This document shows, piece by piece, positions 4,316-62,937 of a stretch of DNA of 64,000 nucleotides (positions within the stretch are counted from its first letter, which is position 1; the number at the start of each line of letters is the position of its first letter). The stretch comes from an uncultured bacterium (GTDB lineage: Bacteria > Patescibacteriota > Minisyncoccia > Phycocordibacterales > CAIZLB01): contig CAINHC010000021.1 of the NCBI GenBank assembly GCA_903848795.1, forward strand, positions 11,309 to 75,308. The letters run 5' to 3'. The notes below the pieces were generated by a model. That model did not search any database. It was given only the letters and a program-made list of their open reading frames with translations, and was not told where the DNA came from. Both the position numbers and the translations under genes were made by a program.

Positions 4316-4380
4316 TTGATTTTTATTTTTCGAAATTTTTATATTTTAACTTTTGGATTCTGACACAATTTTTAAAAATA

Positions 4381-5517
4381 TTAATTGGTTTTGCCATATT
4401 TTTTAAGCCAAGCTAATAAAGGCTTTAATGGGGTCTTGGCAACACAAACAGTTTTGTCTCCCCCACCATAATAAACATACAAATCATCATCCAAAACCAA
4501 AGCTCCAGAGGCATATACAACTCCAGGCTTTCCATCATTTTCATAGTGTGCATCAGGCTCAAGTATTGGATAAATAGATCTGTAAAGAATAACACTTGGA
4601 TCCTTCAAGTCTAGTATCATACATCCAACCTTGTATTTGTTAGGATCCTTTTTATCCATCGCATGATAAAGCAAGAGCCAGCCTAACTTTGTCTTCACTG
4701 GAGGAGAGCCAGCTCCTCGCATCCAATTATCCCATTTATCTTCTCGTCCGCCAGATGGAGCCTTACTCTTTATAAATTCATCGCTCTTAATATAATTAAT
4801 ATCATCAACGTAACTTATTTGTACCTTTGGAGAGACACTGTGAAGTATTGCCATCTTTCCATTTATTTTTTCTGGAAATAAAACCCAATTTTTATTTACC
4901 TCGGTGATAGAGGAAATAAACTTCGGCTTTTTCCAATTCCATTTTCCAGCTTTTAAATCTTCCATTGAAATGGAAGTGAGAGCTATTCTAACCGACTGCC
5001 ATCCTTCAAAAGCGGTGTAAGTCATGTAAACTCTTCCATCCATCACAATGGCACGAGGATCCTCACATCCTCCCCAACTACCGCCAGAACTGTAAATATC
5101 TGTATCGTAATATTTTGGACCGCTAACAACATCTCTTTCTCCGGACTCTTTCAAAATATCATATGAAGGCGGAGTACAAAAAACATAAACAGGATATGGA
5201 GTTTTTGTTGGAAAATTTACTCCATCCATACTTTTTGCATGACCTATACGAGATATACCATCGTCACCTATTGCTCTGTAGAATAGGTGGACAAAACCCT
5301 CATCGTCCTTTATAGCAGCTGGATTAAAAGTTCCGACAGTTTCCCATCCACTATATGGCTTTGGTTGAATTATTGGATTGTTTTCATATCTAATCAAAGC
5401 GAAACGATCTGGTACAACTCTCTTTTTATAAAGATTGACTAGGTGTTTGATGAAATAAACAACACAAACTACCAACCCAACTGATAGAGTAATTAAGATT
5501 AATAAGTTTAAGGTCAT
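4381..5517 (-). CDS. Membrane-anchored single-domain GH130 family protein
   Basis: N-terminal TM helix, then GGCEDPRAIVMDGRVYMTYTAFEGW. Its start overlaps the stop of the upstream cupin gene by 1 nt, consistent with an operon. Confidence 0.7.
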   Translation of the reverse strand: MTLNLLILITLSVGLVVCVVYFIKHLVNLYKKRVVPDRFALIRYENNPIIQPKPYSGWETVGTFNPAAIKDDEGFVHLFYRAIGDDGISRIGHAKSMDGVNFPTKTPYPVYVFCTPPSYDILKESGERDVVSGPKYYDTDIYSSGGSWGGCEDPRAIVMDGRVYMTYTAFEGWQSVRIALTSISMEDLKAGKWNWKKPKFISSITEVNKNWVLFPEKINGKMAILHSVSPKVQISYVDDINYIKSDEFIKSKAPSGGREDKWDNWMRGAGSPPVKTKLGWLLLYHAMDKKDPNKYKVGCMILDLKDPSVILYRSIYPILEPDAHYENDGKPGVVYASGALVLDDDLYVYYGGGDKTVCVAKTPLKPLLAWLKKYGKTN

Positions 5518-5885
5518 TATTTTATTTGACTAGGTCTGTTATATTTATCTTCGACACGGACAATATCATTTTCATTAAAATTGCCGTACGCTATTTCTAA
5601 TAAAACCACATCTTCACTTCCCGCCTCTATTCTATGCAAACTCTTGCGAGGTACAAAGTAATCTTCTCCAGCTACGACATCTTTTCTTGCACCTCCAACT
5701 GTTGCGACACCATTACCAGAAATTATTCTCCAAAACTCATCTCTATCGTCGTGATATTGCAAACTAAAGGCCTGGCCTTTCTCAACTGTAATTATTTTTA
5801 CAGTACAAGGCTGGTTTTTTACAAATTCTACAAAATTACCCCATGGTCTGCTTTCTTGATACGGTTTTGAAGGGTTTTGTTCCAT
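5517..5885 (-). CDS. Cupin-domain protein, mannose-6-phosphate isomerase type II C-terminal-like
   Basis: Cupin_2 core GQAFSLQYHDDRDEFWRIISGNGVATVGG, co-transcribed upstream of the GH130 genes. Confidence 0.55.
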   Translation of the reverse strand: MEQNPSKPYQESRPWGNFVEFVKNQPCTVKIITVEKGQAFSLQYHDDRDEFWRIISGNGVATVGGARKDVVAGEDYFVPRKSLHRIEAGSEDVVLLEIAYGNFNENDIVRVEDKYNRPSQIK

Positions 5886-6196
5886 AGTGTTAGATAAAAA
5901 TTGTGTTAAATTTATGGATTAATTATAGCACACCACCCTGCACTCGAGGTCAAAAGTTATCCACTTATTTGAGTCTTATTTGAATGGGTTGGCTAACCTC
6001 ATTTATCTTAATTTTCTTTAACAGTACACTCTTTCAAATATTTATCAGCGGATTCTGCATTCATGATTTTTATACTCTTTTGGTATCCAAAGTACTCCAT
6101 AATTAGTTTCTGTTCCTCTGTCACATCTCATGTGAATACGTCTATCGCAGTTTTTGGGGATTTCTATTATAGCTTTGTAGTTCATGTTTTTTCAGC

Positions 6197-7420
6197 CTAT
6201 ATGGATTTAATATTGAAGTAACTCGATGAATTCACCGGTGCGGTATTATCTGTTTTGTTTTTAAAATACAAAGCATATCCATCAGCCTGATGGATATTAG
6301 CAGGAACCTTAAATGTTATATTCTTTGTCTTTGAATCAACAAAACCAAGAAATACAGAGCTATAGTTTTCCGTTAGTGAAGGTGTTATTTTATTTAATTC
6401 ATTATACAAGAAAACATTATAGTCTGCAGATGGCAAATCATAATTACTCCAGGTCATGTTATAAGTTTGTCCAGGTCGCAGTACAGCAAAAGGTCCCATC
6501 GAAAATTTAATCGAAACAACATCCGTTGATGAGGCTGTGGTAGAAGTTGCATTAGTTCCAGATGACGGAGCTGGTGGAACAACATTCACTGGATTAGTTG
6601 TAGCTGGTCCAGCCTTTATCTCAAAATCTCTTGACGATGACACCGGAACATTATTATCAGACTTGTTTTTAAAGTACAAGCCATAATCAGTATTGGGATG
6701 CATATTAGCAGGAATCTTAAATACAAGATTCTTTGTTTTTGCATCAACGTACCCTAGGAATACAGAGCTATAGTTTTCCGTTAGTGAAGGTTTTATTTCA
6801 TTAGATGGACTATATAAGAAAATATTATAATTTGCAGAAGGTGCGTCGTAATTACTCCAAGTTACACTATAAGTCTGTCCTGCCAGTAGTACCTTGGGTA
6901 ACTTTGAATATGTAAGTGGTATAGCGTCTGTTAATGAAGCGGTGGATATTGATGCAGAATCTGTAGATCCGGCTGATGGCGCCTGTAGGAAGACAACATT
7001 TGTGGGAGTGGAAGTCGGAGTAGTTGTTCCAGCTAATGAATAGTTTGTTGAGGTAGCTACCGGACCAGTTGTTGCCTCAGCGCAATCAATTTGCTTAATC
7101 TTCGCTCTTGTTAATGAACCAACATATCCAGTTGGAGAAATATTATTATCCTTCTGGAAAGCCTTAACAGCAATAAGGGTCGCACGGCCAAAGAATCCGG
7201 TTGGTTGCGCAGTTAAATAATTTTTAGTATTTAAAAAATCTTGCAAAATAGAAATGTCAGTAGCCCCACTTGAATCTCTAGTTCCATATTTAAGATTATT
7301 ATTAATGATCGCACAAGCCTGAGAGCCTGTTGGATCAACGTCGCTCTGCTGTGCAAATATTAATGAAGGAGTTAATAAAAGCACCAACACCAAAACACTA
7401 TACAAAATACTTTTTTTCAT
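6197..7420 (-). CDS. Secreted protein with N-terminal peptidoglycan-binding (PG_binding_1) domain and two internal ~95-aa tandem repeats
   Basis: Signal peptide; PG-binding motif ILQDFLNTKNYL...GFFGRATLIAVKAFQ...GYVG; two repeats sharing ...TWSNYD.PSA.YN.FLY...PSLTENYSSVFLG.VD.KTKN..FK.PAN... Confidence 0.6.
   Translation of the reverse strand: MKKSILYSVLVLVLLLTPSLIFAQQSDVDPTGSQACAIINNNLKYGTRDSSGATDISILQDFLNTKNYLTAQPTGFFGRATLIAVKAFQKDNNISPTGYVGSLTRAKIKQIDCAEATTGPVATSTNYSLAGTTTPTSTPTNVVFLQAPSAGSTDSASISTASLTDAIPLTYSKLPKVLLAGQTYSVTWSNYDAPSANYNIFLYSPSNEIKPSLTENYSSVFLGYVDAKTKNLVFKIPANMHPNTDYGLYFKNKSDNNVPVSSSRDFEIKAGPATTNPVNVVPPAPSSGTNATSTTASSTDVVSIKFSMGPFAVLRPGQTYNMTWSNYDLPSADYNVFLYNELNKITPSLTENYSSVFLGFVDSKTKNITFKVPANIHQADGYALYFKNKTDNTAPVNSSSYFNIKSI
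6215..6905. repeat. Intragenic tandem duplication, two ~290-nt copies at ~80% nucleotide identity
   Basis: Near-identical 45-nt stretches share a common core (...atcaac...aatacagagctatagttttccgttagtgaagg...) at 6345-6390 and 6746-6790; they encode the two protein repeats. Confidence 0.7.
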
Positions 7421-7448
7421 GAATTTTATAAATTTAATTCTTAATGGA

Positions 7449-8036
7449 TTAATTATACAACACCATCTCCGTTATTTCCAACATCTCTCCATCTGACCCC
7501 TTAAATCTTTCATCAAAGGTCTTTTTACCAGTTTCAACAAAACCTTGTTTTTTATAAAAGCCCACCCCTCGGGAGTTAAGGGAAAATACATCTAAATACG
7601 TATCTTTGTTTTTATCCAACAAACCGTGTGCTTTATCATACAATTCTTTAGCAAGCCCTTGACCCTTGAATTCTGGCATGACATACAAAGCCTCTATTGT
7701 ATTTTTATCTTCATGTTTTTCAGCAAAACAACATCCGACAACTTTTTCTTCATCTTTCCCATCGTTGTCATTAGTCATTTTTGCGACCATAAGAATATTA
7801 TCATCCGTAAAATTAGCAATGCCTTTTTCCAACCCCTCGGCTGCCTTTTGTGCTTTTTCTGGAGGAAAATGATTATTTATCTCCTCCTCCGACCAACCGC
7901 AAAGTTTGTACATCCCTTTGGATGATTCAATTGTTAATGATTGGATACCATAGGCGTCGGAAGGGATAGCTTTTGATATTTTGACGTTGTTCATTTTATA
8001 TCTATTTATTAAGCGCATTCCTTGTTGCTGGACCAA
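7449..8036 (-). CDS. GNAT-family N-acetyltransferase
   Basis: Acetyl-CoA-binding region VMPEFKGQGLAKELYDKA...RGVGFYKKQGFVETG. The start overlaps the upstream gene, so the true start is probably an internal Met. Confidence 0.6.
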   Translation of the reverse strand: MVQQQGMRLINRYKMNNVKISKAIPSDAYGIQSLTIESSKGMYKLCGWSEEEINNHFPPEKAQKAAEGLEKGIANFTDDNILMVAKMTNDNDGKDEEKVVGCCFAEKHEDKNTIEALYVMPEFKGQGLAKELYDKAHGLLDKNKDTYLDVFSLNSRGVGFYKKQGFVETGKKTFDERFKGSDGEMLEITEMVLYN

Positions 8037-15784: not shown

Positions 15785-16106
15785 ATTTACATTTTATCCT
15801 AGATATCGGTTATTATAAAGGCTTCTCTATTTTTTCCAACGCCTGTCTCGCTTAAGACAAATCAGCTTTATCTCCGTTTGACAACCTATCGCCGTATTCT
15901 TCTGGCGCCATTATTATCGCAATCTTTTTTCTTAATACCTCTTCATGCCCCCATTCAGATCGTTTTATCATAAGAACATTGCGATTATTTATAGCACAGG
16001 ACTAACGATTTAAAATATTAAGACTGCAAGTTGCTTCAACCCAGTAGGCAACAATCCACCCAAAATACCTCGAAGAATATAGTTTTAAAAAAACAATTAC
16101 AGACAT

Positions 16107-20967: not shown

Positions 20968-21109
20968 GCGTTAATAATAACATCATCAATAATCAAAGCA
21001 AGCAACATTCTATTGAATAAACTGACCTTATCACAAACCACCATGCAAGAAGTTCTGACGTTCAAGACGCTTATTATAAAAAGGCTTGAAACAAAGGCGG
21101 AAATACCGG

Positions 21110-21181
21110 CTGGGAGACTAGGAATCGAACCTAGATTAAAAGCTTCAAAGGCTTCTGTCCTACCGTTAGACGATCTCCCAA
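21110..21181 (-). tRNA. tRNA-Gln (anticodon UUG)
   Basis: The reverse complement gives a 7-bp acceptor stem GGGAGAT/GTCTCCC, T-loop GGTTCGATTCC, and anticodon loop CTTTGAA (U-UUG-A). No encoded CCA. Confidence 0.8.
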
Positions 21182-33237: not shown

Positions 33238-34305
33238 TTAATAACCCGTGTACGATATTAATGAATACATCGGAGTGATAATCGACACGGCAATAAAGCC
33301 CACTCCAAGACCGACCATTATCATCGATACTGGCTCAATCAATTTATTGATCATTGTAATACCATCATCAAAATATTCTTGATGAATATCGGCAATTGAA
33401 GAAAATGTTTCTGAAATTGAACCAGTTTGTTCTCCGCAAACAATGAGCGGTACCCAGATTTTATTTTCTCTTGATATTTCTCGGCTTATACTTCTTGATA
33501 ACAAAACCCCACTCTCAACATCTCGAGCAACGTTTAATAACTTTATTTTTTCTTTAGGGATAATTGATCCCATCGCCGAGTCTCTGAGAGATTCCACCAA
33601 AAGTCCGCTAGATGCAAAAACTTCACTTGCAATACGAAAGCTGATAAGGGCGGAGTAGTGACTAAGCAGTGCGCCGAGAATTGGGACCTTCACCAAAAAA
33701 GCGCCGACATAATTTTTGAAATAATTAATCCCCTTATTTTTGATGATAAATAAAATTAAAAATGTGCAGAGGATAATGAGGCTAGAAATAAAGATAATTA
33801 CATGAATCAAATATGTACTCAAGAAAAATAGGACTTGCGTTGTCCAAGGAATTTTGATTCGGCCTCCGCTAAAGAGTGGTTTAATTTTAGGAACAATTAT
33901 TATCAGGATCATAAACACCAATATGATGGACACTGTGAATATAATGAAAGGATAAAGCAAGGCAAGTAAAAACTTGGATTTGGTTTTGTCTATGCTTTTA
34001 CTCATTTCACATACTCTATTAATCCCCTCTGCTAAACTACCGGACTCCTCAGACTTTTTGATGATTGTTAATTCATAATCTCTAATTGGTAAACCCAACT
34101 CTTCAATTGACTGACCAAATGTTTTACCTGATTTTAAATTATCAATTATTTGCCTTTTCCAATCAAAATTATTTTCGTCACAAAAAACTTCCAATGATTC
34201 AATCAGTGGAACACCAGAAGAATACAATCTGGCGAACATTTTGAAATGCCCGAGTATTTCTTTTCTTAATTTTGATTTGCTAATTTTCTTCATATTTTGG
34301 TTCAA
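33238..34305 (-). CDS. Type II secretion / type IV pilus platform protein (GspF/PilC family)
   Basis: Two T2SSF-like halves with three TM helices. The C-terminal region (GEQTGSISETFSSIADIHQEYFDD...IEPVSMIMVGLGVGFIAVSIITPMY) is typical of GspF/PilC. Confidence 0.7.
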   Translation of the reverse strand: MNQNMKKISKSKLRKEILGHFKMFARLYSSGVPLIESLEVFCDENNFDWKRQIIDNLKSGKTFGQSIEELGLPIRDYELTIIKKSEESGSLAEGINRVCEMSKSIDKTKSKFLLALLYPFIIFTVSIILVFMILIIIVPKIKPLFSGGRIKIPWTTQVLFFLSTYLIHVIIFISSLIILCTFLILFIIKNKGINYFKNYVGAFLVKVPILGALLSHYSALISFRIASEVFASSGLLVESLRDSAMGSIIPKEKIKLLNVARDVESGVLLSRSISREISRENKIWVPLIVCGEQTGSISETFSSIADIHQEYFDDGITMINKLIEPVSMIMVGLGVGFIAVSIITPMYSLISYTGY

Positions 34306-35359
34306 ATTTCTTCACCTTATTTTCCCTATCCTCCTCCATTGATTCGTAAGTAAATTCCTGCTTATATCTTTCGTTATTTGAGCTGCCTGAATCATCATCC
34401 ATAAACACACTCTGTGCATCCCCTCCTTTGTTATTTACCAAACTCTCAAACATGGCTATTTGTTCAAAATTCCACTCCGCGCCACTTTCAACCTTTTCGA
34501 GTCTTTGATTAAATATTGCTCTAGTAACCATTGATAATTCATAAGCGTCAGCCCCAAGATATCGGCATCTTCTAATTGTCATCCTTATATCCCTTGCATG
34601 AATTGTGGTAATGACAGTATGCCCCGTCAGTGCAAGATTCATCACACTTTTCATTGTGTCAGAATCCCTGACCTCACCGACATAAATCACATCTGGATCT
34701 TGTCGCATTGAAGCCTTGAGAGCCTGAGCATAATTGAATCCAGATTGAGGGCGTATTTGAACTTGTCTTAGACCCTCTATCCTCCTCTCAACTGGATCCT
34801 CAATCGTTAGTATCTGTTTATTCTCTTCAATCAATGACGAAAGCAAACTATATGCACTCGTAGACTTTCCACTCCCCGTCGGACCAGAAAATATTACAAG
34901 ACCAGGAGATGTCCGTAGACCTTCAAGTAAATTATGAAAGATATTCGACGACATTCCTGCGTCAGTTAAATACTGAATTTGTAAACTCGCGGAATCAAGA
35001 ATACGAAGAACCATACACTCCCCATCGACTCCAGGTATTGTAGCGACACGTACTCTATAACCCTCATGACCAAAACTACCGTCTTGCGGTATATCTTTTA
35101 TATCAATACGCATCTGAGCCAAAATCTTGTATCGACCGATCAGCTCAATATATTGGCCGTAGCTTATGAAGCGACCAACACTCATGTGACCCTTTATTCT
35201 GAATCTAATTTCTGTCCTATCCTTGGATGGCTGAATGTGAATGTCTGAAGCCTTTAATTGTATAGCATCAATGATAAGAGCATCAGCTTGGTCGACTGAG
35301 TTTTTTGAATTTATATATAAAAGTGATTCGATAATATTTTCCTCTTGCTCTTGTACCAT
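34280..35359 (-). CDS. GspE/PilB/PilT-family secretion ATPase
   Basis: Walker A FSGPTGSGKST, Asp box VIYVGEVRD, His box GHTVITTIHA. Overlaps the pilC start by 26 nt. Confidence 0.75.
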   Translation of the reverse strand: MVQEQEENIIESLLYINSKNSVDQADALIIDAIQLKASDIHIQPSKDRTEIRFRIKGHMSVGRFISYGQYIELIGRYKILAQMRIDIKDIPQDGSFGHEGYRVRVATIPGVDGECMVLRILDSASLQIQYLTDAGMSSNIFHNLLEGLRTSPGLVIFSGPTGSGKSTSAYSLLSSLIEENKQILTIEDPVERRIEGLRQVQIRPQSGFNYAQALKASMRQDPDVIYVGEVRDSDTMKSVMNLALTGHTVITTIHARDIRMTIRRCRYLGADAYELSMVTRAIFNQRLEKVESGAEWNFEQIAMFESLVNNKGGDAQSVFMDDDSGSSNNERYKQEFTYESMEEDRENKVKKFEPKYEEN

Positions 35360-36896: not shown

Positions 36897-37434
36897 ATTT
36901 CAGGAGGTTGGCAAGGCCGACCCGGCAGCACTAGATATATCAGTCGTGTGTGCCTATGATTCAGAAACAGAGACCTATTCTAGCTACACACAAGAGGAGC
37001 TGCATAAACTATGGCCATTAATTGAACAATCCGATGTTTTGGTCACCTTCAACGGAGATCACTTTGACATCCCCCTACTCAACAAATATTATCATGGCAA
37101 CCTATTACAAAAGAAAAGCCTTGACCTACTAAAGGAAGTCAAGAAATCACTAGGCTTTCGCGTAGGGCTTGGAGTAATCGCGCAGGGAACATTGAATGCA
37201 GGCAAAAGCGCCCACGGACTTGAAGCTGTTGAATGGTGGAAGAAGGGTGAAATAGACAAAATAATCAAATACTGCTTGGATGATGTAAAAATCACCAAGG
37301 AGGTTCATGATTACGCTATCGCCAATAAGAAGCTTAAATACAAAGAAGGTGAAGCAATAATCGAATTCCCAATGGACACGAAGGACTGGGAGGATACCGG
37401 AGAAAACAAGATGAATTTCACTTTGCCATTTTAG
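36859..37434 (+). CDS. RNase H-like 3'-5' exonuclease (YprB / PolB-exonuclease-like fold)
   Basis: MRKLFFDIETRN (Exo I DxE) and FNGDHFDIPLL, typical of the RNase_H_2 / DnaQ-like superfamily. The track start at 36808 probably overextends. Confidence 0.5.
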   Translation: MRKLFFDIETRNTFQEVGKADPAALDISVVCAYDSETETYSSYTQEELHKLWPLIEQSDVLVTFNGDHFDIPLLNKYYHGNLLQKKSLDLLKEVKKSLGFRVGLGVIAQGTLNAGKSAHGLEAVEWWKKGEIDKIIKYCLDDVKITKEVHDYAIANKKLKYKEGEAIIEFPMDTKDWEDTGENKMNFTLPF

Positions 37435-37492
37435 GCTGACCGTAGGCACAGCGGTCACATTACCCTTTTAATATTAATTCGATTTAGCAAAC

Positions 37493-37579
37493 GATTCAGC
37501 AGAATCGCCTACTGGGCTCGTCCCGACGACGATTCTGGTGAATCGCCTACTGGGCGATTTTGAAGAATCGCCTACTAGG
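37493..37579 (+). promoter_or_regulatory. Three tandem copies of a 24-nt motif GATTC-N4-GAATC-GCCTACT(G/A)GG just upstream of the dsbA-like gene; candidate operator array
   Basis: Copies at 37493-37516, 37531-37554 and 37556-37579 (starts 38 and 25 nt apart). Each holds an internal 5-bp dyad GATTC/GAATC. -10-like tgatataat at 37580-37588, just upstream of the dsbA ATG (37596). Confidence 0.55.
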
Positions 37580-37595
37580 TGATATAATAGACAAC

Positions 37596-38333
37596 ATGGA
37601 AAATACCGAACAGACACAAAGACGTATGTCATTACAAACAATGATTATACCAATCGCCATCATAATCGCTGGCGCATTAATAGCGGGTGGAATTTATATG
37701 AGTGGAACTTCTAAAAAAGCGGATCTATCTGGACCTGCAACAATAAAAGCAGAGATTGTGATAGAACCTGTAACTACAGCGGACCACGTTTTGGGAGATC
37801 CAAAGACAGCAAAGGTTACAATTATTGAATATTCAGATTTGGAATGTCCATTCTGTAAGTCATATCATGAGACTCTTTCAAAATTATATGATGAGAACAA
37901 AGCTGGCGGAAAATTAGCATGGGTATATAGACACGCCCCAATTGTTGAACTGCACAGCAAGTCTCCAAAGGAAGCTGAAGCAACGGAGTGTGCAGCCGAG
38001 CTTGGTGGCAACACAGTATTCTGGAAATATTTAACAGAAGTATTTGGAACCACGCCATCAAACAACGGGCTTAACGCAGATAAACTTTATGAATTTGCAG
38101 ATACAGTTGGTCTGAATGCATCAGCATTTAAGACATGTTTGGATAGTGGAAAGTATGCAACCAAAATTAACGAACAAATAACGGCATCCAAAAAAGCAGG
38201 TGTAGAAGGTACTCCTTATGCTGTACTTGTAATGGATGGAAAGAATGTACCATTGGTTGATAAGGACGGAAATGGACTAGGTGCTCTACCATATCCACAG
38301 ATGAAGCAAATTTTGGATCAATTGATGAAATAG
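37596..38333 (+). CDS. DsbA-like thiol:disulfide oxidoreductase, membrane-anchored
   Basis: N-terminal TM helix; thioredoxin-fold CxxC (DLECPFCKSYH). The track start at 37560 is a TTG; the ATG at 37596 is more plausible. Confidence 0.65.
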   Translation: MENTEQTQRRMSLQTMIIPIAIIIAGALIAGGIYMSGTSKKADLSGPATIKAEIVIEPVTTADHVLGDPKTAKVTIIEYSDLECPFCKSYHETLSKLYDENKAGGKLAWVYRHAPIVELHSKSPKEAEATECAAELGGNTVFWKYLTEVFGTTPSNNGLNADKLYEFADTVGLNASAFKTCLDSGKYATKINEQITASKKAGVEGTPYAVLVMDGKNVPLVDKDGNGLGALPYPQMKQILDQLMK

Positions 38334-39849: not shown

Positions 39850-40116
39850 CTATCTATCATAAAAAACATTTCCTCTACTTTCAATTTCAATGATCTCTAT
39901 TATCAACTTTAATTCAATTATTTGATAAATTATTCTATAGTTTGCAATTTTTATCTTTCTGAGATGAGATAATTTGCCATTCATCTTTATACCCATAGTG
40001 GGATTATTTTGTAATTGATCAATTGCAGACTGGACTCTAAAACATATAGCCTTAGGTATTTTCAATAAAGCTTTTTCAGCATCTTTATGCAAGTAAATTA
40101 TGTATCTTTCTACCAT
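39850..40116 (-). CDS. RelE/ParE-family type II toxin
   Basis: 88 aa; ...KLSHLRKIKIANYRIIYQIIELKLIIEIIEIESRGNVFY is the RelE/ParE C-terminal core. Sits 4 nt after the antitoxin stop. Confidence 0.65.
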   Translation of the reverse strand: MVERYIIYLHKDAEKALLKIPKAICFRVQSAIDQLQNNPTMGIKMNGKLSHLRKIKIANYRIIYQIIELKLIIEIIEIESRGNVFYDR

Positions 40117-40119
40117 AGA

Positions 40120-40479
40120 TTATTTACTCTTCTTATTATTTTTCTTACCTTTACTTACATATTTCTGTTTTGATTCATCTGCTAAAACCATTGTACCCGT
40201 CTTTGCCAAAAGTTCCTGCTTAATACTATTCCAAGCTCGGTATTCACCGTTAGTAAACTCTTCATCTACCTTTTTAACCTTTGCCATAAATTTACGATTC
40301 TTCATGAGAGCCAGATCTTCTACGAGATTTTCATATTCTTCTGCACTAATCATGACCACCTTTGGTTTGCCATTTTCAGTAAATGTAAAAATCTGTCCAA
40401 ACTTTTGAACCTTTTCTGCTATTTCAAATATTTTAGATCTAGCCTCAGATATTGATATAATATTTTTGAATTTTATCAT
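40120..40479 (-). CDS. Phd/YefM-family antitoxin
   Basis: ISISEARSKIFEIAEKVQKFGQIFTFTENGKPKVVMISAEEYENL is the canonical Phd/YefM N-terminal fold sequence. Basic C-terminal tail. Confidence 0.65.
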   Translation of the reverse strand: MIKFKNIISISEARSKIFEIAEKVQKFGQIFTFTENGKPKVVMISAEEYENLVEDLALMKNRKFMAKVKKVDEEFTNGEYRAWNSIKQELLAKTGTMVLADESKQKYVSKGKKNNKKSK

Positions 40480-46863: not shown

Positions 46864-47550
46864 ATGAAAAGCGAAATAAAATTCATAAGCGTTATGGCCG
46901 TCCTAACTATCATCGTAGTCGGAGCTGGTCTATATATCTCCGCAAAAAATGGTGGACAAACTGGTATTCCAAAACCAATTATCAAGCCCGAGCTTCTTAT
47001 AAAAGTTGGAAGTCCGATGATAGAAAATGGAGTAGCATCTTTAACAAAAGATACAAACCTAAGTACCTCTTCAGTTACAATTGTAGAATTCGCTGACTAT
47101 GCATGTCCAGCATGTTCTGCACTACAACCTGAAATGGAAAAATTATTGAAGAAAGATCCAACTATTAAATATGTTTATAGGACTATTCCAATTCACGCAC
47201 AATCAAAGGAAGAAGCAAAGATGGTATACGCGTCTATGTCTCAAGGAAAGTTCAAAGAATATGCAAGTTTGATTTTCAAGAATCAAGAAGAGTGGGATAA
47301 GACGGGAGTAGATTTTATTCCTTTTTTTACAAAATACGCAGAGTCTCTAGGAATGGATGTTGCAAAGCTAAAAGCGGATTCTGCTAATCCAGCAATAGCC
47401 GCAACAATTGAATCTGATGCAAAGGATGGACAAGATTTGAGTATTTACGCAACTCCAACGGTTCTCTTCGTCGGACCAAAGGGTTCAACATATACTCAAG
47501 GTGCAGTTCAAGAATCTGAATTGCAAAAGGCGGTGGATTCAGTGAAATAG
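46864..47550 (+). CDS. DsbA-like thiol:disulfide oxidoreductase, membrane-anchored (second copy)
   Basis: N-terminal TM helix; CxxC DYACPACSAL; DsbA-like fold. Confidence 0.65.
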   Translation: MKSEIKFISVMAVLTIIVVGAGLYISAKNGGQTGIPKPIIKPELLIKVGSPMIENGVASLTKDTNLSTSSVTIVEFADYACPACSALQPEMEKLLKKDPTIKYVYRTIPIHAQSKEEAKMVYASMSQGKFKEYASLIFKNQEEWDKTGVDFIPFFTKYAESLGMDVAKLKADSANPAIAATIESDAKDGQDLSIYATPTVLFVGPKGSTYTQGAVQESELQKAVDSVK

Positions 47551-59433: not shown

Positions 59434-62400
59434 TTAATTGTTGTCCTCGGCGTTCGCTTGCTCATATGCGACCACTTCATTTTCAAGATCGGTTGAATCT
59501 TTATTCAATTCAACATCAACTCCAAGACCTCTAAGGTTTGAAAGAAGTACGTTGAATGATGCTGGGGTATTTGGATCCAACAATTTATGTCCCTTAACGA
59601 TTGAGTCAAAGGCTTGAGTTCTACCTTGAATATCGTCAGACTTAATTGTAAGCATTTCACGAAGTGCGTGGGCTGCGCCGTATCCCGCTAGCGCCCAGAC
59701 TTCCATTTCTCCAAATCTCTGTCCTCCTCCTTGTGCCTTTCCTCCTAGAGGTTGCTGTGTAATTAGAGAGTAAGGACCGATGGAACGCATGTGAATCTTG
59801 TCTTCAACCATGTGGTGAAGTTTCAAAATATACATGTATCCAACCGCGATGTCCTGTGCGAATTTCTCTCCTGTTCTACCATCAAACAATTTCATTTTTC
59901 CGTTTTCATTATATCCAGCAGAAACAAGTTCTGATTTAATTTCTTCAGATGTAGCTCCGATAAATGGAGGAACGATTGCTTGATAACCCATTTTGTTTGC
60001 AGCCAAACCTAAGTGAAGCTCAAGGATCTGTCCAAGGTTCATACGTGATGGAACGCCGAGTGGTGTAAGAATCACATCAACTGGAGTTCCGTCTGCCATG
60101 AATGGCATATCTTCAACTGGAAGAACACGTGAGATAACTCCCTTGTTACCGTGACGTCCTGCCAACTTATCTCCAACAGAAACAGAACGCAAAAGTGCAA
60201 CTTCGATGTGAATTCTTTTAATAATTCCTGACTCTAGTTTATCTCCTCGCTCTCTTGAGAAAATCTTCACACTTATTATACGTCCGCGCTTTCCATTTTC
60301 TAGTCTCTTTGATGTATCTTTAACATCTCTTGATTTTTCACCGAAGATTGATCTAAGAAGTCTTTCCTCTGGAGTTAGCTGAGTCTCACTCTTTGGAGTA
60401 ATTTTTCCAACAATGATATCTCCTGGTCTAACCTCCGCTCCAACTCTAACAATTCCGTCAACGTCCAAGTTCTTTAGTCTATTTTCTCCAACATTTGGAA
60501 TATCATGAGTAGTAACTTCAGGCCCTAGCTTAGTATCACGAACGTTAATAACAAACTCTTCAATGTGAACAGTTGTAAATTTTGATTCCTTAACAAGTCT
60601 CTCTGATAGGATAATAGCGTCTTCAAAGTTTGCCCCAGACCATGTCATGAAAGCAACAAGACAGTTTTGTCCAAGCGCCATTTGTCCTCCAACAGATGTT
60701 GAAGTGTCAGCAAGAACATCCCCTCTCTTAACCTTCTGTCCGATACTAACTATAGGACGTTGATGGAAAGCTGTGAATTGGTTTGTTCTACTGAAGTTCA
60801 CAAGCTTAAACTCATGATCCTTCTTTCCACGTAGCACAACTTTCTTTGCATCGACTCCAATAATAAGACCGTCCTCTGGTGCGATAATTACACGTCCTGT
60901 GTCAACTGCAGCCTTCTCCTCAATTCCAGTTGCAACTAGTGGTGCTTCAGGAACGATACAAGGAGTAGCTTGCTTCTGCATGTTTGAGGCCATCAACGCT
61001 CTTTGTGCGTTGTCATGGTTCAAGAATGGAATCATAGAAGTTGAAATAGAGAAAGCCTGATCTGTTGAAACGTCAATATATTCTACTTCTTCCTTTGAAA
61101 CCACAGCGGGTTCACCGTTTATTCTAACCTCGAGTGTATCTTTTGCAATATTACCATCTTTATCATAGTCAGTTGTGGCGTGGGCAATTTTACATCCCTC
61201 TTCCTCAAGTGCATTAAGATAAACAACCTCTTTTGTAACCTTTCCTTTTGCAACCTTTACATAAGGAGTCTCAATCATTCCGAAGTGATTGATTCTAGCA
61301 TACATAGCAAGCTGAAGAACAAGACCAATGTTTTGTCCTTCTGGTGTGTGAATTGGACAAATTCTACCGTAGTGAGATGCATGAACGTCACGAACCTCAA
61401 CTCCAGCACGCTCTCTTGTTAGTCCGCCGGGGCCAAGGGCAGAAATTCTACGCAAGTGCTCAATTTCGGCAAGAATGTTTTCTTGACTCATAAATTGTGA
61501 CAATTGGTTTGTAGTGTAGAATTCCTTTATACGAGCTTGAAGTGGACGAGGTGAGATAAATTGAATAGGAAGATTTGCATCAGTATCAATTGTAGACATT
61601 CTGTTTTGAATGTTTCTCTTAATTTGAGTCATACCAATTCTAATTTTTGCTTGAAGCATTTCTCCAACGTATCTAACGCGACGTGATCCTAAGTGGTCAA
61701 CATCATCTTGAACTGAAGCAGGATTGTGAGCAAGTTCAATAATTTTATTTATTGTAACAGCCAAGTCATCCAAGCTAAGTGTCATAACAGAAACCGACTT
61801 CTCATCCATAGGCTTTCCAAATCTTTGATTGAAACGGAAACGTCCTACTTTTGACAAATCATATCTCTCAGCCGACTTAAGTAGAGAGTCAACATATTCA
61901 CGAGCGTTGTCAGCTGTTGCAAGCTCACCATCACGCATCTTTCTGTGGATTTCAATATAGGCCTCGTCTTTTGTCTTGGCGTGATCCTTAGCTAGTGTTG
62001 ATTCAATAAATGGAAGTGCTAATTCATTATCCTTAAACAATGCCTTTATTTCTGTATCAGTCTCAGCTCCGAATACACGTAGAAGTGATGTAACAGGAAA
62101 CTTTCGCTTTCTGTCCATTCTTACATATATAGTGTGATCCGCATCAGTATCAATCTCAATCCAAGCACCACGTGCAGGAATAATTTTTGCTCCAAAGTAT
62201 GTCTTACCCTTCAATTCTTGTGAAGTGAAAAATACTCCATATGAACGGGCAAGCTGTGGAACGATAAGTCTCTCAATACCATTTATAATAAAAGTTCCGT
62301 GATCAGTCATCAAAGGAAAATCAGCAACGAAGATTTCTTGCTCTTTCGTTGTGTTTAAGATTTTGTTTTTTAGGCGAACCATGACCTTTAGAGGTGCTTC

Positions 62401-62643
62401 GAAGTTCACTTTATTGTCCTTTGCATAAAATTCATCAAACTTTGGTTTTTCTAATTGAAAATCAAAAAAATCCAACTCAAACTTCTTGCCTGAGTAGTCT
62501 TGTATTGATGAAAATTCACTGAACACTTCTGATATACCTCTGTCTAGTAACCATTTAAACGATTCTAATTGGGCTTCTACTAAATTGGGAAGCGGCGCTA
62601 GCGGCTCCTTAAAACGTGAAAAATACTTTTTGGGACGTATCAT
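59434..62643 (-). CDS. rpoB: DNA-directed RNA polymerase subunit beta
   Basis: Conserved blocks throughout (GEMEVWALAGYGAAHALRE, NADFDGD-partner regions, GKAQGGGQRFGEMEVWAL); compact 1069-aa form. Confidence 0.9.
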   Translation of the reverse strand: MIRPKKYFSRFKEPLAPLPNLVEAQLESFKWLLDRGISEVFSEFSSIQDYSGKKFELDFFDFQLEKPKFDEFYAKDNKVNFEAPLKVMVRLKNKILNTTKEQEIFVADFPLMTDHGTFIINGIERLIVPQLARSYGVFFTSQELKGKTYFGAKIIPARGAWIEIDTDADHTIYVRMDRKRKFPVTSLLRVFGAETDTEIKALFKDNELALPFIESTLAKDHAKTKDEAYIEIHRKMRDGELATADNAREYVDSLLKSAERYDLSKVGRFRFNQRFGKPMDEKSVSVMTLSLDDLAVTINKIIELAHNPASVQDDVDHLGSRRVRYVGEMLQAKIRIGMTQIKRNIQNRMSTIDTDANLPIQFISPRPLQARIKEFYTTNQLSQFMSQENILAEIEHLRRISALGPGGLTRERAGVEVRDVHASHYGRICPIHTPEGQNIGLVLQLAMYARINHFGMIETPYVKVAKGKVTKEVVYLNALEEEGCKIAHATTDYDKDGNIAKDTLEVRINGEPAVVSKEEVEYIDVSTDQAFSISTSMIPFLNHDNAQRALMASNMQKQATPCIVPEAPLVATGIEEKAAVDTGRVIIAPEDGLIIGVDAKKVVLRGKKDHEFKLVNFSRTNQFTAFHQRPIVSIGQKVKRGDVLADTSTSVGGQMALGQNCLVAFMTWSGANFEDAIILSERLVKESKFTTVHIEEFVINVRDTKLGPEVTTHDIPNVGENRLKNLDVDGIVRVGAEVRPGDIIVGKITPKSETQLTPEERLLRSIFGEKSRDVKDTSKRLENGKRGRIISVKIFSRERGDKLESGIIKRIHIEVALLRSVSVGDKLAGRHGNKGVISRVLPVEDMPFMADGTPVDVILTPLGVPSRMNLGQILELHLGLAANKMGYQAIVPPFIGATSEEIKSELVSAGYNENGKMKLFDGRTGEKFAQDIAVGYMYILKLHHMVEDKIHMRSIGPYSLITQQPLGGKAQGGGQRFGEMEVWALAGYGAAHALREMLTIKSDDIQGRTQAFDSIVKGHKLLDPNTPASFNVLLSNLRGLGVDVELNKDSTDLENEVVAYEQANAEDNN

Positions 62644-62763
62644 AAAGCGTCTATTTAATTAAACGAGAATTGGTAAAAGTGAGCCCGCGAAAGAGCAGTA
62701 AAACTCAATCGTCTTTACGCAGACCCTTATAGTATATGATTTATCCACAGGTGTCAATTTTAA

Positions 62764-62787
62764 CCCAGTAGGTGATTCTGCTGAATC
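62764..62787 (-). promoter_or_regulatory. Fourth copy of the GATTC-N4-GAATC-(A/G)CCTACTGGG motif, in the rpoB upstream region
   Basis: The reverse complement of 62764-62787 is gattcagcagaatcacctactggg (23/24 identical to 37493-37516). Flanked on the rpoB-coding strand by TTGACA-like hexamers. Confidence 0.5.
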
Positions 62788-62937
62788 AGGTGTTGACAAC
62801 TCCATTCGTATTAGTTTGGGTCTTTTGTCAACTTTAATTAGGTCTCGAAATGGGTCCTGAAGCCTTATTTTTAGGCAAATTAACCAAACTGGAAAGATTT
62901 TGTGAGGAATACAAAAGAATACACAAACTTACTTATT

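Follow-up and report, generated by a model that had tools for sequence, protein, structure and literature searches.

In the IS200/IS605 family of insertion sequences, a hairpin together with a short single-stranded segment is recognized, insertion makes no target duplication and excision is scarless. The tetranucleotide GTAG is a feature of the consensus sequences of repetitive extragenic palindromes (REPs). Individual REPs have been described as a 5' flank, a palindrome and a 3' flank (PMC3337134). The element treated here was found in a 64-kb stretch of DNA from an uncultured member of the Patescibacteria (contig CAINHC010000021.1, positions 11,309 to 75,308; hereafter the window, with positions counted from its first nucleotide), where it stands upstream of a dsbA-like gene and upstream of rpoB. 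It is probably one unit of a dispersed, insertion-prone, REP-like miniature repeat of the Parcubacteria (Patescibacteria). Close relatives differ by gains and losses of copies at precise positions; the copies build direct tandem or mosaic arrays and land in intergenic spacers, in hairpin loops, in an intron loop and in frame within protein-coding genes.

The pattern GATTCNNNNGAATCRCCTACTRGG occurs four times in the window, three times on the + strand and once on the − strand, and none of 100 dinucleotide-preserving shuffles of the window contained it, which bears out the four copies listed in a first-pass annotation of this DNA. Three of them belong to an inserted array of 100 nt (37480..37579, + strand) on the 5' side of dsbA, which combines three full units with one partial unit and a spacer module. 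The array opens with a truncated unit, CGATTTAGCAAAC (37480..37492, + strand), read from its sequence as the 5' half of the hairpin; half-units of this kind are also present in L118, L083 and L094. Copy 1, GATTCAGCAGAATCGCCTACTGGG (37493..37516, + strand), has no mismatch to GATTCNNNNGAATCRCCTACTRGG, and C 37492 pairs with G 37507 to give a 6-bp stem. The spacer module CTCGTCCCGACGAC (37517..37530, + strand) recurs together with the unit that follows it in other lake Parcubacteria, and TCRTCCMAACGAY-related modules precede GATTCTGGTGAATC units in L118, L051, L015 and L112. Copy 2, GATTCTGGTGAATCGCCTACTGGG (37531..37554, + strand), again has no mismatch and carries the loop variant TGGT. Copy 3, GATTTTGAAGAATCGCCTACTAGG (37556..37579, + strand), has one mismatch (GATTT for GATTC), which places a T.G wobble in its stem. 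The block of copy 2, a C and copy 3 is also found in L072, L051 and L015, on the 5' side of unrelated genes. Four independent assemblies of this lake species carry exactly the same array, which is therefore not an assembly artefact. Copy 4, GATTCAGCAGAATCACCTACTGGG (62764..62787, − strand), near rpoB, matches the pattern without mismatch and is, as the annotation also had it, identical to copy 1 at 23 of 24 positions, the difference being a G to A change at the base after the dyad. Here T 62788 pairs with A 62773, and the inserted block is a single 25-nt unit at about 62766–62790, with edges that are ambiguous by 2–3 nt. All four copies are oriented toward the downstream gene, as is also the case for rpoB on the − strand.

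The gene beside the array encodes a DsbA-family protein with a thioredoxin fold (37596..38333, + strand; Pfam DSBA and Thioredoxin_4) and is a neighbor of the insertion, not a part of the element. Its ATG at 37596, on which the gene callers used for the public contigs agree, lies 7 nt after an extended −10 element, TGATATAAT (37580..37588, + strand), that a promoter scan also picked up. Copy 3 ends at 37579, and the copies thus do not overlap the −10 and start of dsbA, as had been proposed. The arrangement TGATATAAT-N7-ATG is kept at five of five orthologous dsbA loci, with or without an array (it is seen at about 2480–2503 in L117 to L120), and as read from these letters it suggests a leaderless dsbA mRNA made from an extended −10 promoter, with no room for a 5' untranslated region (UTR) or a Shine–Dalgarno sequence.

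The orthologous loci come from contigs L117, L118, L119 and L120, with DsbA proteins at 71–85% identity, and the gene order TruB, RNase_H_2-like gene, DsbA is kept in the relatives. Whereas the spacer upstream of dsbA is 161 nt long in the window, it measures only 24–25 nt in L117, L119 and L120, where it consists of about nine A/T-rich bases, TGATATAAT, seven bases and the ATG. The motif is absent from these three spacers, and the insertion point of the window array coincides with the 5' edge of TGATATAAT. At the same point, L118 has a different, rearranged array of 78 nt. The window is closest to L117 (85% nucleotide identity), and L118 falls outside this pair (81%). As L117 is the closest relative yet empty, and L118 is filled, either an insertion was followed by a scarless loss in L117 or insertion occurred repeatedly at the same spot.

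A second pair of filled and empty sites was found at rpoB (59434–62643, − strand), the gene downstream of copy 4. Contig L121, the RpoB of which is 95% identical, has the empty site GTCAACA|GGTAAAAATTGACA, that is, GAGTTGTCAACA|GGTAAAAATTGACACCTGTGG, and the window has its unit at the bar, with no target duplication in this comparison. The rpoB promoter, TTGACA-N17-TACTAT (62729..62757, − strand; −35 at 62757–62752, −10 at 62734–62729), is kept in L121 although the motif is absent there. Copy 4 is followed by TTAAAA and then by the TTGACA, which begins 7 nt downstream of the copy, so the motif, at about −65 to −42, lies upstream of the promoter and not in the leader or promoter, where it had been placed. 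The relatives without the motif have conserved promoters, and the window copies were therefore inserted beside promoters that already existed; both sites are recent, lineage-specific insertions.

Taken alone, the promoter positions look like those of an activator site. Relative to the dsbA promoter, copy 3 lies at about −39 to −16, copy 2 at about −64 to −41 and copy 1 at about −102 to −79, and copy 2 and the rpoB copy occupy nearly the same position, about −64 to −41. Together with the 5-N4-5 geometry of the dyad and the direction in which all four copies face, this made it reasonable, on sequence grounds, to propose a dimeric transcription factor whose operator would place dsbA and the RNA polymerase operon under common control. 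The conservation upstream of dsbA and rpoB orthologues, which had been suggested as a check, speaks against such an operator, as the motif is missing from both orthologous promoters in the relatives (L117, L119 and L120 for dsbA, L121 for rpoB) while the promoters themselves are conserved. The fixed sequence, moreover, amounts to about 45 bits or more, far above what operators carry.

The wider distribution of the motif was obtained from a scan of one genome per species of the GTDB and from a scan of metagenomes, which gave at least 112 loci from at least 75 assemblies and at least 120 loci, respectively, and more than 230 loci overall with the sequence Y-GATTC-AGYA-GAATC-R-CCTACTGGG-T. Among the 75 assemblies listed, 74 are Patescibacteria, Parcubacteria, Paceibacterota, Nomura-, Kaiser-, Zambryski-, Taylor- or Adlerbacteria or unnamed metagenome-assembled genomes (MAGs); the one remaining match listed, in Fibrobacter, lies inside an open reading frame (ORF) and has an odd loop. 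By a rough estimate, about four chance matches would be expected in the genome collection. The motif-bearing loci span 32–60% G+C, and the RpoB proteins of two motif-bearing genomes are only 63–64% identical to that of the window. The motif was absent from 2.9 million viral contigs, and a phage origin was rejected on this ground. No Rfam family matched the motif at the gathering threshold in the window or in ten motif loci, where only a tRNA and a 23S rRNA were reported, and a permissive scan (E up to 10) across 37380–37680 gave no match. Full-text searches for CACCTACTGGG returned only unrelated primer matches, and no paper was found linking Parcubacteria, Patescibacteria or bacteria of the candidate phyla radiation (CPR) with REPs, REP-associated tyrosine transposases (RAYTs), miniature inverted-repeat transposable elements (MITEs) or uptake sequences. 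The element is thus absent from Rfam, and no report of it was found in full-text searches.

The copies also made it possible to see what is conserved in the unit, which is 25–26 nt long and consists of a 6-bp stem, Y-GATTC / GAATC-R, an AGYA loop and a 10-nt 3' tail, CCTACTGGGT. The genome scan left the flanks and the four loop bases free, and CCTACT was fixed by every search pattern. Among the free positions, 99% of copies had T or C at position 0, the loop bases A-G-Y-A were present in 88–91% at each position, and position 25 was T in 82%. Positions 0 and 15 covary (T-A 79, C-G 32, other 5; Fisher p = 1e-23). Relaxed matches included swapped or replaced stems that still pair, such as GAATC/GATTC, AATTT/AAATT and CATTG/CAATG. 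In the metagenome scan, with ten stem positions free to vary by transition and position 10 fixed as G, 97% of pair cells were standard pairs and the compensatory stems GATCC/GGATC, AATTC/GAATT and AATCC/GGATT recurred; changes on both sides of the stem were seen in 11 cells against 3.2 in shuffles, and none of 500 shuffles reached that number. A second possible helix, of positions 5–10 with 17–22, pairs better on the reverse strand, its tail side being fixed by the search patterns, and pairing of the tail with 23S rRNA was no better than that of shuffled tails. The unit is a 6-bp hairpin constrained in structure, with a loop and a 10-nt tail constrained in sequence. Compensatory changes in the stem, which occur within the same genomes, point to pairing within a nucleic acid and not to a homodimer that reads two half-sites.

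In their genomic context, 82 of 120 copies (68%) are intergenic, against the 13% of non-coding DNA expected from crude gene calls that cover 87% of the locus DNA (p = 5e-45). The genes around intergenic copies are arranged in every way (same/same 17, opposite/opposite 23, divergent 12, convergent 18), and the neighbors are diverse, unrelated housekeeping genes. Downstream of arrays like those of the window stand genes for a XerC-like recombinase, LysRS, UppP, GatB and membrane proteins, which are mutually unrelated. When the DsbA and RpoB of the window and both upstream proteins were compared by tblastn with the 112 listed loci, no conserved adjacency emerged: dsbA adjoins the motif at none of them (a DsbA-like match in L068 is about 1.8 kb off), and rpoB is present in two, at a distance of more than 1 kb. 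Some ten copies come directly after terminator hairpins, and at about 10% of loci the copy sits in the loop of a larger palindrome or terminator. In L101, 23S rRNA is interrupted by a group I intron, and a copy occupies the extended P1 loop of this intron. Three further copies are in frame within protein genes, namely LeuRS in L055, in the linker before the anticodon-binding domain, an ABC ATPase in L098, with about 55 extra residues compared with its homologue in L092, and a PaaX-like protein in L042; coding copies in forward orientation encode the hydrophilic DSAESPTG in every case checked.

These contexts settle the matter of the shared operator, which is hardly tenable any longer. The wide pattern search found scattered copies without promoter association, and an operator is refuted by copies that lie in every gene arrangement, the convergent one included, within coding sequence and within an intron, as well as by the compensatory stems. 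With no other motif locus having an adjacent dsbA, the regulon of dsbA and RNA polymerase falls with it. The degenerate partial matches that had been noted at 16043 and 23256 are at chance level, since CCTACTGGG with at most one mismatch occurs nine times in the window against 4.9 expected, and four of the nine are the real copies. What the first-pass annotation had offered as a fallback, a miniature repeat element, is in turn supported by the dispersal, by the empty and filled sites and by the covariation in the hairpin. A phage-type polymerase promoter or a promoter for an alternative sigma factor, which the high information content and the GGG end could have suggested, was rejected, as there is no orientation bias relative to downstream genes.

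Some public contigs end in or at a motif array (L114 at position 1, L072 at position 4, and L036, L027 and L071), which suggests that the repeat interrupts the short-read assembly of MAGs of Parcubacteria. Contig ends of this kind could also be read as the mark of a sequencing adapter or an assembly artefact, to which next to no credence can be given: breaks are expected at repeats, the array is the same in the four assemblies of its species, the motif keeps to a single bacterial lineage in data from many unrelated studies and assemblers, copies lie in frame in conserved genes, and the viral contigs have none.

The miniature repeat thus remains the favored explanation, and a mechanism can be outlined for it. 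The unit would be recognized as a folded single strand, of single-stranded DNA (ssDNA) or RNA, by a conserved trans-acting protein that may read the stem by shape and the loop and tail by sequence. Such a hairpin, with its tail of about 10 nt, would have the substrate shape of HUH/Y1 enzymes, such as the TnpA of IS200/IS605 or the RAYTs that move REPs, and insertion without target duplication and scarless empty sites fit the chemistry of these enzymes. Any regulatory effect at the window sites would then be a side effect. The array appears to have replaced the DNA upstream of the dsbA −10, where the altered loop region of copy 3 supplies a −35-like TTGAAG (37560–37565) with a 17-nt spacer to the −10. 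A dsbA promoter of the extended −10 type should tolerate such swapped upstream DNA, and TTGAAG (TTGGAG in L118, L072, L051 and L015) at the −35 position may compensate for the replacement. At rpoB, the unit would displace whatever lay at about −42 to −66, upstream of the −35. Units in reverse orientation may have been co-opted as compact spacers just upstream of start codons.

Several observations weigh against a mobile repeat of this kind. No mobilizing enzyme was found: only two genes for an IS200-like TnpA were present in the 232 loci (about 1.6 Mb), each over 0.6 kb away from the motif and with terminal hairpins unrelated to it. This search was run with phmmer against the six-frame ORFs of the 232 loci and the window, using IS200 TnpA, the E. 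coli RAYT and a Parcubacterial TnpA as queries, and had limited sensitivity, so that remote RAYTs could escape. An all-against-all clustering of neighbor proteins, carried out twice, gave no recurrent non-housekeeping family beside the motif. Copy number is low, of the order of ten per genome, unlike the hundreds of classical REPs; the window has two sites in 64 kb, and few second sites were seen within the 8-kb loci (about 1.5 Mb). The near-identity of the unit across genomes of 32–60% G+C exceeds that of usual REP families, and the two window sites are opposite in orientation relative to replication. Single-sided stem changes, with the fixed pair excluded, comprise eight forward-strand G.T and three A.C, a weak hint that the forward strand is the one that folds. 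Finally, distant species retain the motif at two orthologous operon junctions, one joining serS to an ftsQ-like gene and the other joining atpG to atpD, the proteins flanking the latter being only 35–56% identical; retention at such junctions argues for purifying selection, and hence for use by the host and against an element that is selfish and nothing more.

This last point leads to a reading in which the unit is a host-maintained, sequence-specific hairpin signal, in ssDNA or RNA, written into Parcubacterial genomes as a 25-nt cassette by some enzyme, without a linked transposase, terminal inverted repeats or a target duplication, and held by purifying selection at serS–ftsQ and atpG–atpD as a compact intercistronic module for expression. 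Such a signal seems unlikely on the whole, though it deserves to be taken seriously. A cis-acting RNA module with a host function, copied around the genome and acting in its reverse orientation, CCCAGUAGGUGAUUC-URCU-GAAUC, as an intercistronic element for translation initiation, processing or stability, is distinctly doubtful. It would account for the 14 loci in which the reverse-complement motif lies 2–11 nt upstream of an ATG, against five in forward orientation, with A-rich spacers to those start codons and no other Shine–Dalgarno sequence there. The unit fills nearly the whole spacer between the serS stop and the ftsQ-like ATG in L002, L045 and L198, it stands between atpG and atpD in L076 and L109, which are distant species, and L024, L136 and L239 each have a good promoter with the forward motif downstream of it, in a 5' UTR; the stem, too, tolerates G.U pairs. 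The AGGUGAU of the reverse unit presumably matches the complement of the near-universal 3' end of 16S rRNA, and the hairpin could bring it near the AUG. There is, on the other hand, no orientation bias relative to flanking genes (17 versus 23), a large number of copies stand where convergent genes meet or on the 5' side of promoters, all four window copies included, no Rfam family matches, and the origin of new copies is left unexplained.

A composite of about 110 nt, in which the motif is followed by an intrinsic terminator, recurs 41–43 nt upstream of the start codon of unrelated genes, namely in L007 (about 6300–6440), L028 (about 5820–5950) and L077 (about 5450–5600), of which L007 and L028 stem from the same MAG. 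The composite is on the opposite strand in all three, the genes being opposite to the motif, and a related copy is present in L097 (about 4360–4500). Together, the junctions, the start codons and the composite keep a role in RNA or another host function alive; they have no bearing on the four window copies, because those lie upstream of promoters.

Another host function would be that of a chromosomal site for a conserved DNA-handling protein, for example in nucleoid organization, segregation, replication arrest or DNA uptake, comparable to parS, Ter or uptake sequences. Low copy number together with very high conservation across divergent genomes would suit such a site. Patescibacteria are known for competence, and pilus and competence machinery is common among them; the type IV pilus assembly genes in the window, for T2SSF and T2SSE (PilC/PilB-like; 33238–35359, − strand, upstream of the dsbA region), make an uptake signal conceivable. 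A site of this kind is nevertheless very improbable, as the motif occurs about once per 30–200 kb against about once per kb for known uptake sequences, is gained and lost between close relatives and forms tandem arrays. It also has no consistent orientation relative to replication in the window, where the GC skew is negative throughout and the two sites are oppositely oriented, and the compensatory evolution of the stem indicates a folded single strand and not a duplex site.

Two further candidates were rejected. An origin from tRNA or transfer-messenger RNA (tmRNA) found no support, as ARAGORN reported only a tRNA-Gln at 21108–21180, and the 3' end of a tRNA in L019 that shares CCTACTGGG is otherwise unalignable and the match is put down to chance. 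A repeat array like those of CRISPR or of type III toxin–antitoxin systems, which the 25-nt tandem arrays could have suggested, was excluded, because spacers are lacking and neither a toxin gene nor a cas gene stands regularly beside the repeats.

Other features were noted around the same loci. Just upstream of the array, the 3' end of the RNase_H_2-like gene appears duplicated (37420–37470): the ancestral end ACATTACCCTTTTAA, as in L117, now lies 3' of a diverged copy, ACTTTGCCATTTTAG, and between the two is GCTGACCGTAGGCACAGCGGTC, a hairpin-forming piece of 22 nt that the relatives do not have and that would be a second small insertion. Some 9 kb further downstream, the window has another DsbA/Thioredoxin_4 gene (about 46864–47550, + strand; coordinates transferred from L113), with a pair of response-regulator and histidine-kinase genes between it and the first, and a ParE-like toxin and Phd/YefM antitoxin pair (Pfam) is just downstream of the dsbA region (39850–40479, − strand). 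About 2 kb upstream of the dsbA array of L118 there is a fragment of a DDE_Tnp_IS1595 transposase (361–708), probably unrelated because that family uses no hairpin ends. The 23S rRNA gene of L101 is interrupted twice near its 3' end, by the group I-like intron at 6776–7085 and by a second interruption at about 7140–7930 that contains an ORF. In L078 (2900–3930), two near-identical blocks of about 100 nt, each with a terminator, a motif array and shared flanks, directly flank an ORF of 215 amino acids in a region rich in accessory genes (by eye DUF3800-like, SocA-like and MazF/PemK-like), an arrangement that looks like a cassette bounded by motif arrays.

For the window, these findings remove a false lead: there is no evidence of a regulon joining envelope redox and RNA polymerase, and the shared motif is inserted repeat DNA. 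Their broader interest lies in the hosts, as Parcubacteria genomes are small and streamlined and repeats are expected to be rare in them, yet a unit of 25–26 nt is kept nearly letter for letter across at least 74 species and is tolerated within essential genes and an rRNA intron. Follow-up could reveal how mini-repeats spread in uncultivated ultra-small bacteria. It could also provide a lineage marker, explain contig breaks in MAG assembly and account for promoter and intercistronic architecture, such as leaderless extended −10 promoters with arrays inserted upstream. Should the host signal prove true, it would be a new kind of portable cis-element in highly reduced bacterial genomes.

Compared with known systems, the unit shares with the ends of IS200/IS605 elements and their non-autonomous derivatives a hairpin and short single-stranded segment as the presumed recognized unit, the lack of target-site duplication and scarless empty sites. 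It differs from them in that the two IS200-like elements near motif loci have other terminal hairpins and the sequence 5' of the unit shows no conserved target tetranucleotide. A MITE is a poor match, as there is no target duplication at the rpoB site and the sole inverted repeat is the internal 6-bp stem, and the density of two sites per 64 kb is unlike the one per kb or so of DNA uptake sequences. Rickettsia palindromic elements likewise insert in frame in protein genes, as well as in RNA genes and intergenic DNA, but they are 100–150 bp long and conserved over their full length, whereas the present copies share only a 25-nt core with arms that vary by locus, the host lineage is unrelated to Rickettsia, and the unit is not known to resemble those elements in sequence. 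Like the dRS3 repeats and neisserial intergenic mosaic elements (NIMEs) of Neisseria and the pneumococcal BOX, the arrays are intergenic assemblies of small modules in variable order and number, sometimes with promoter- or terminator-like pieces; those elements, however, have other sequences and lineages and are abundant within species, not conserved across an order-level clade.

The closest resemblance in behavior is to REPs, their bacterial interspersed mosaic elements (BIMEs) and the associated RAYTs. In both cases, a short extragenic palindrome has conserved non-palindromic flanks, occurs in both orientations, forms clusters or mosaic arrays with other small modules, follows terminators in some copies and varies in presence between relatives. 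On its reverse strand, the motif reads CCCA-GTAG-G-Y-GATTC (CCCAGTAGG-Y-GATTC), with GTAG just 5' of the stem, CCTACT having been fixed by the search. Unlike REPs, it has no linked RAYT or Y1 gene in the 232 loci and the window, it occurs mostly as single units or direct tandems, inverted pairs being rare (one in L108) in contrast to the inverted doublets of REPINs (REP doublets forming hairpins), it numbers about ten copies per genome and not hundreds, and its unit is only 25 nt long. A REP family is usually confined to one species or one family of bacteria, whereas a single sequence is found here across genomes of 32–60% G+C. The element is REP-like in behavior, stands apart from the REPs in RAYT linkage, copy number and doublets, and is unusually conserved.

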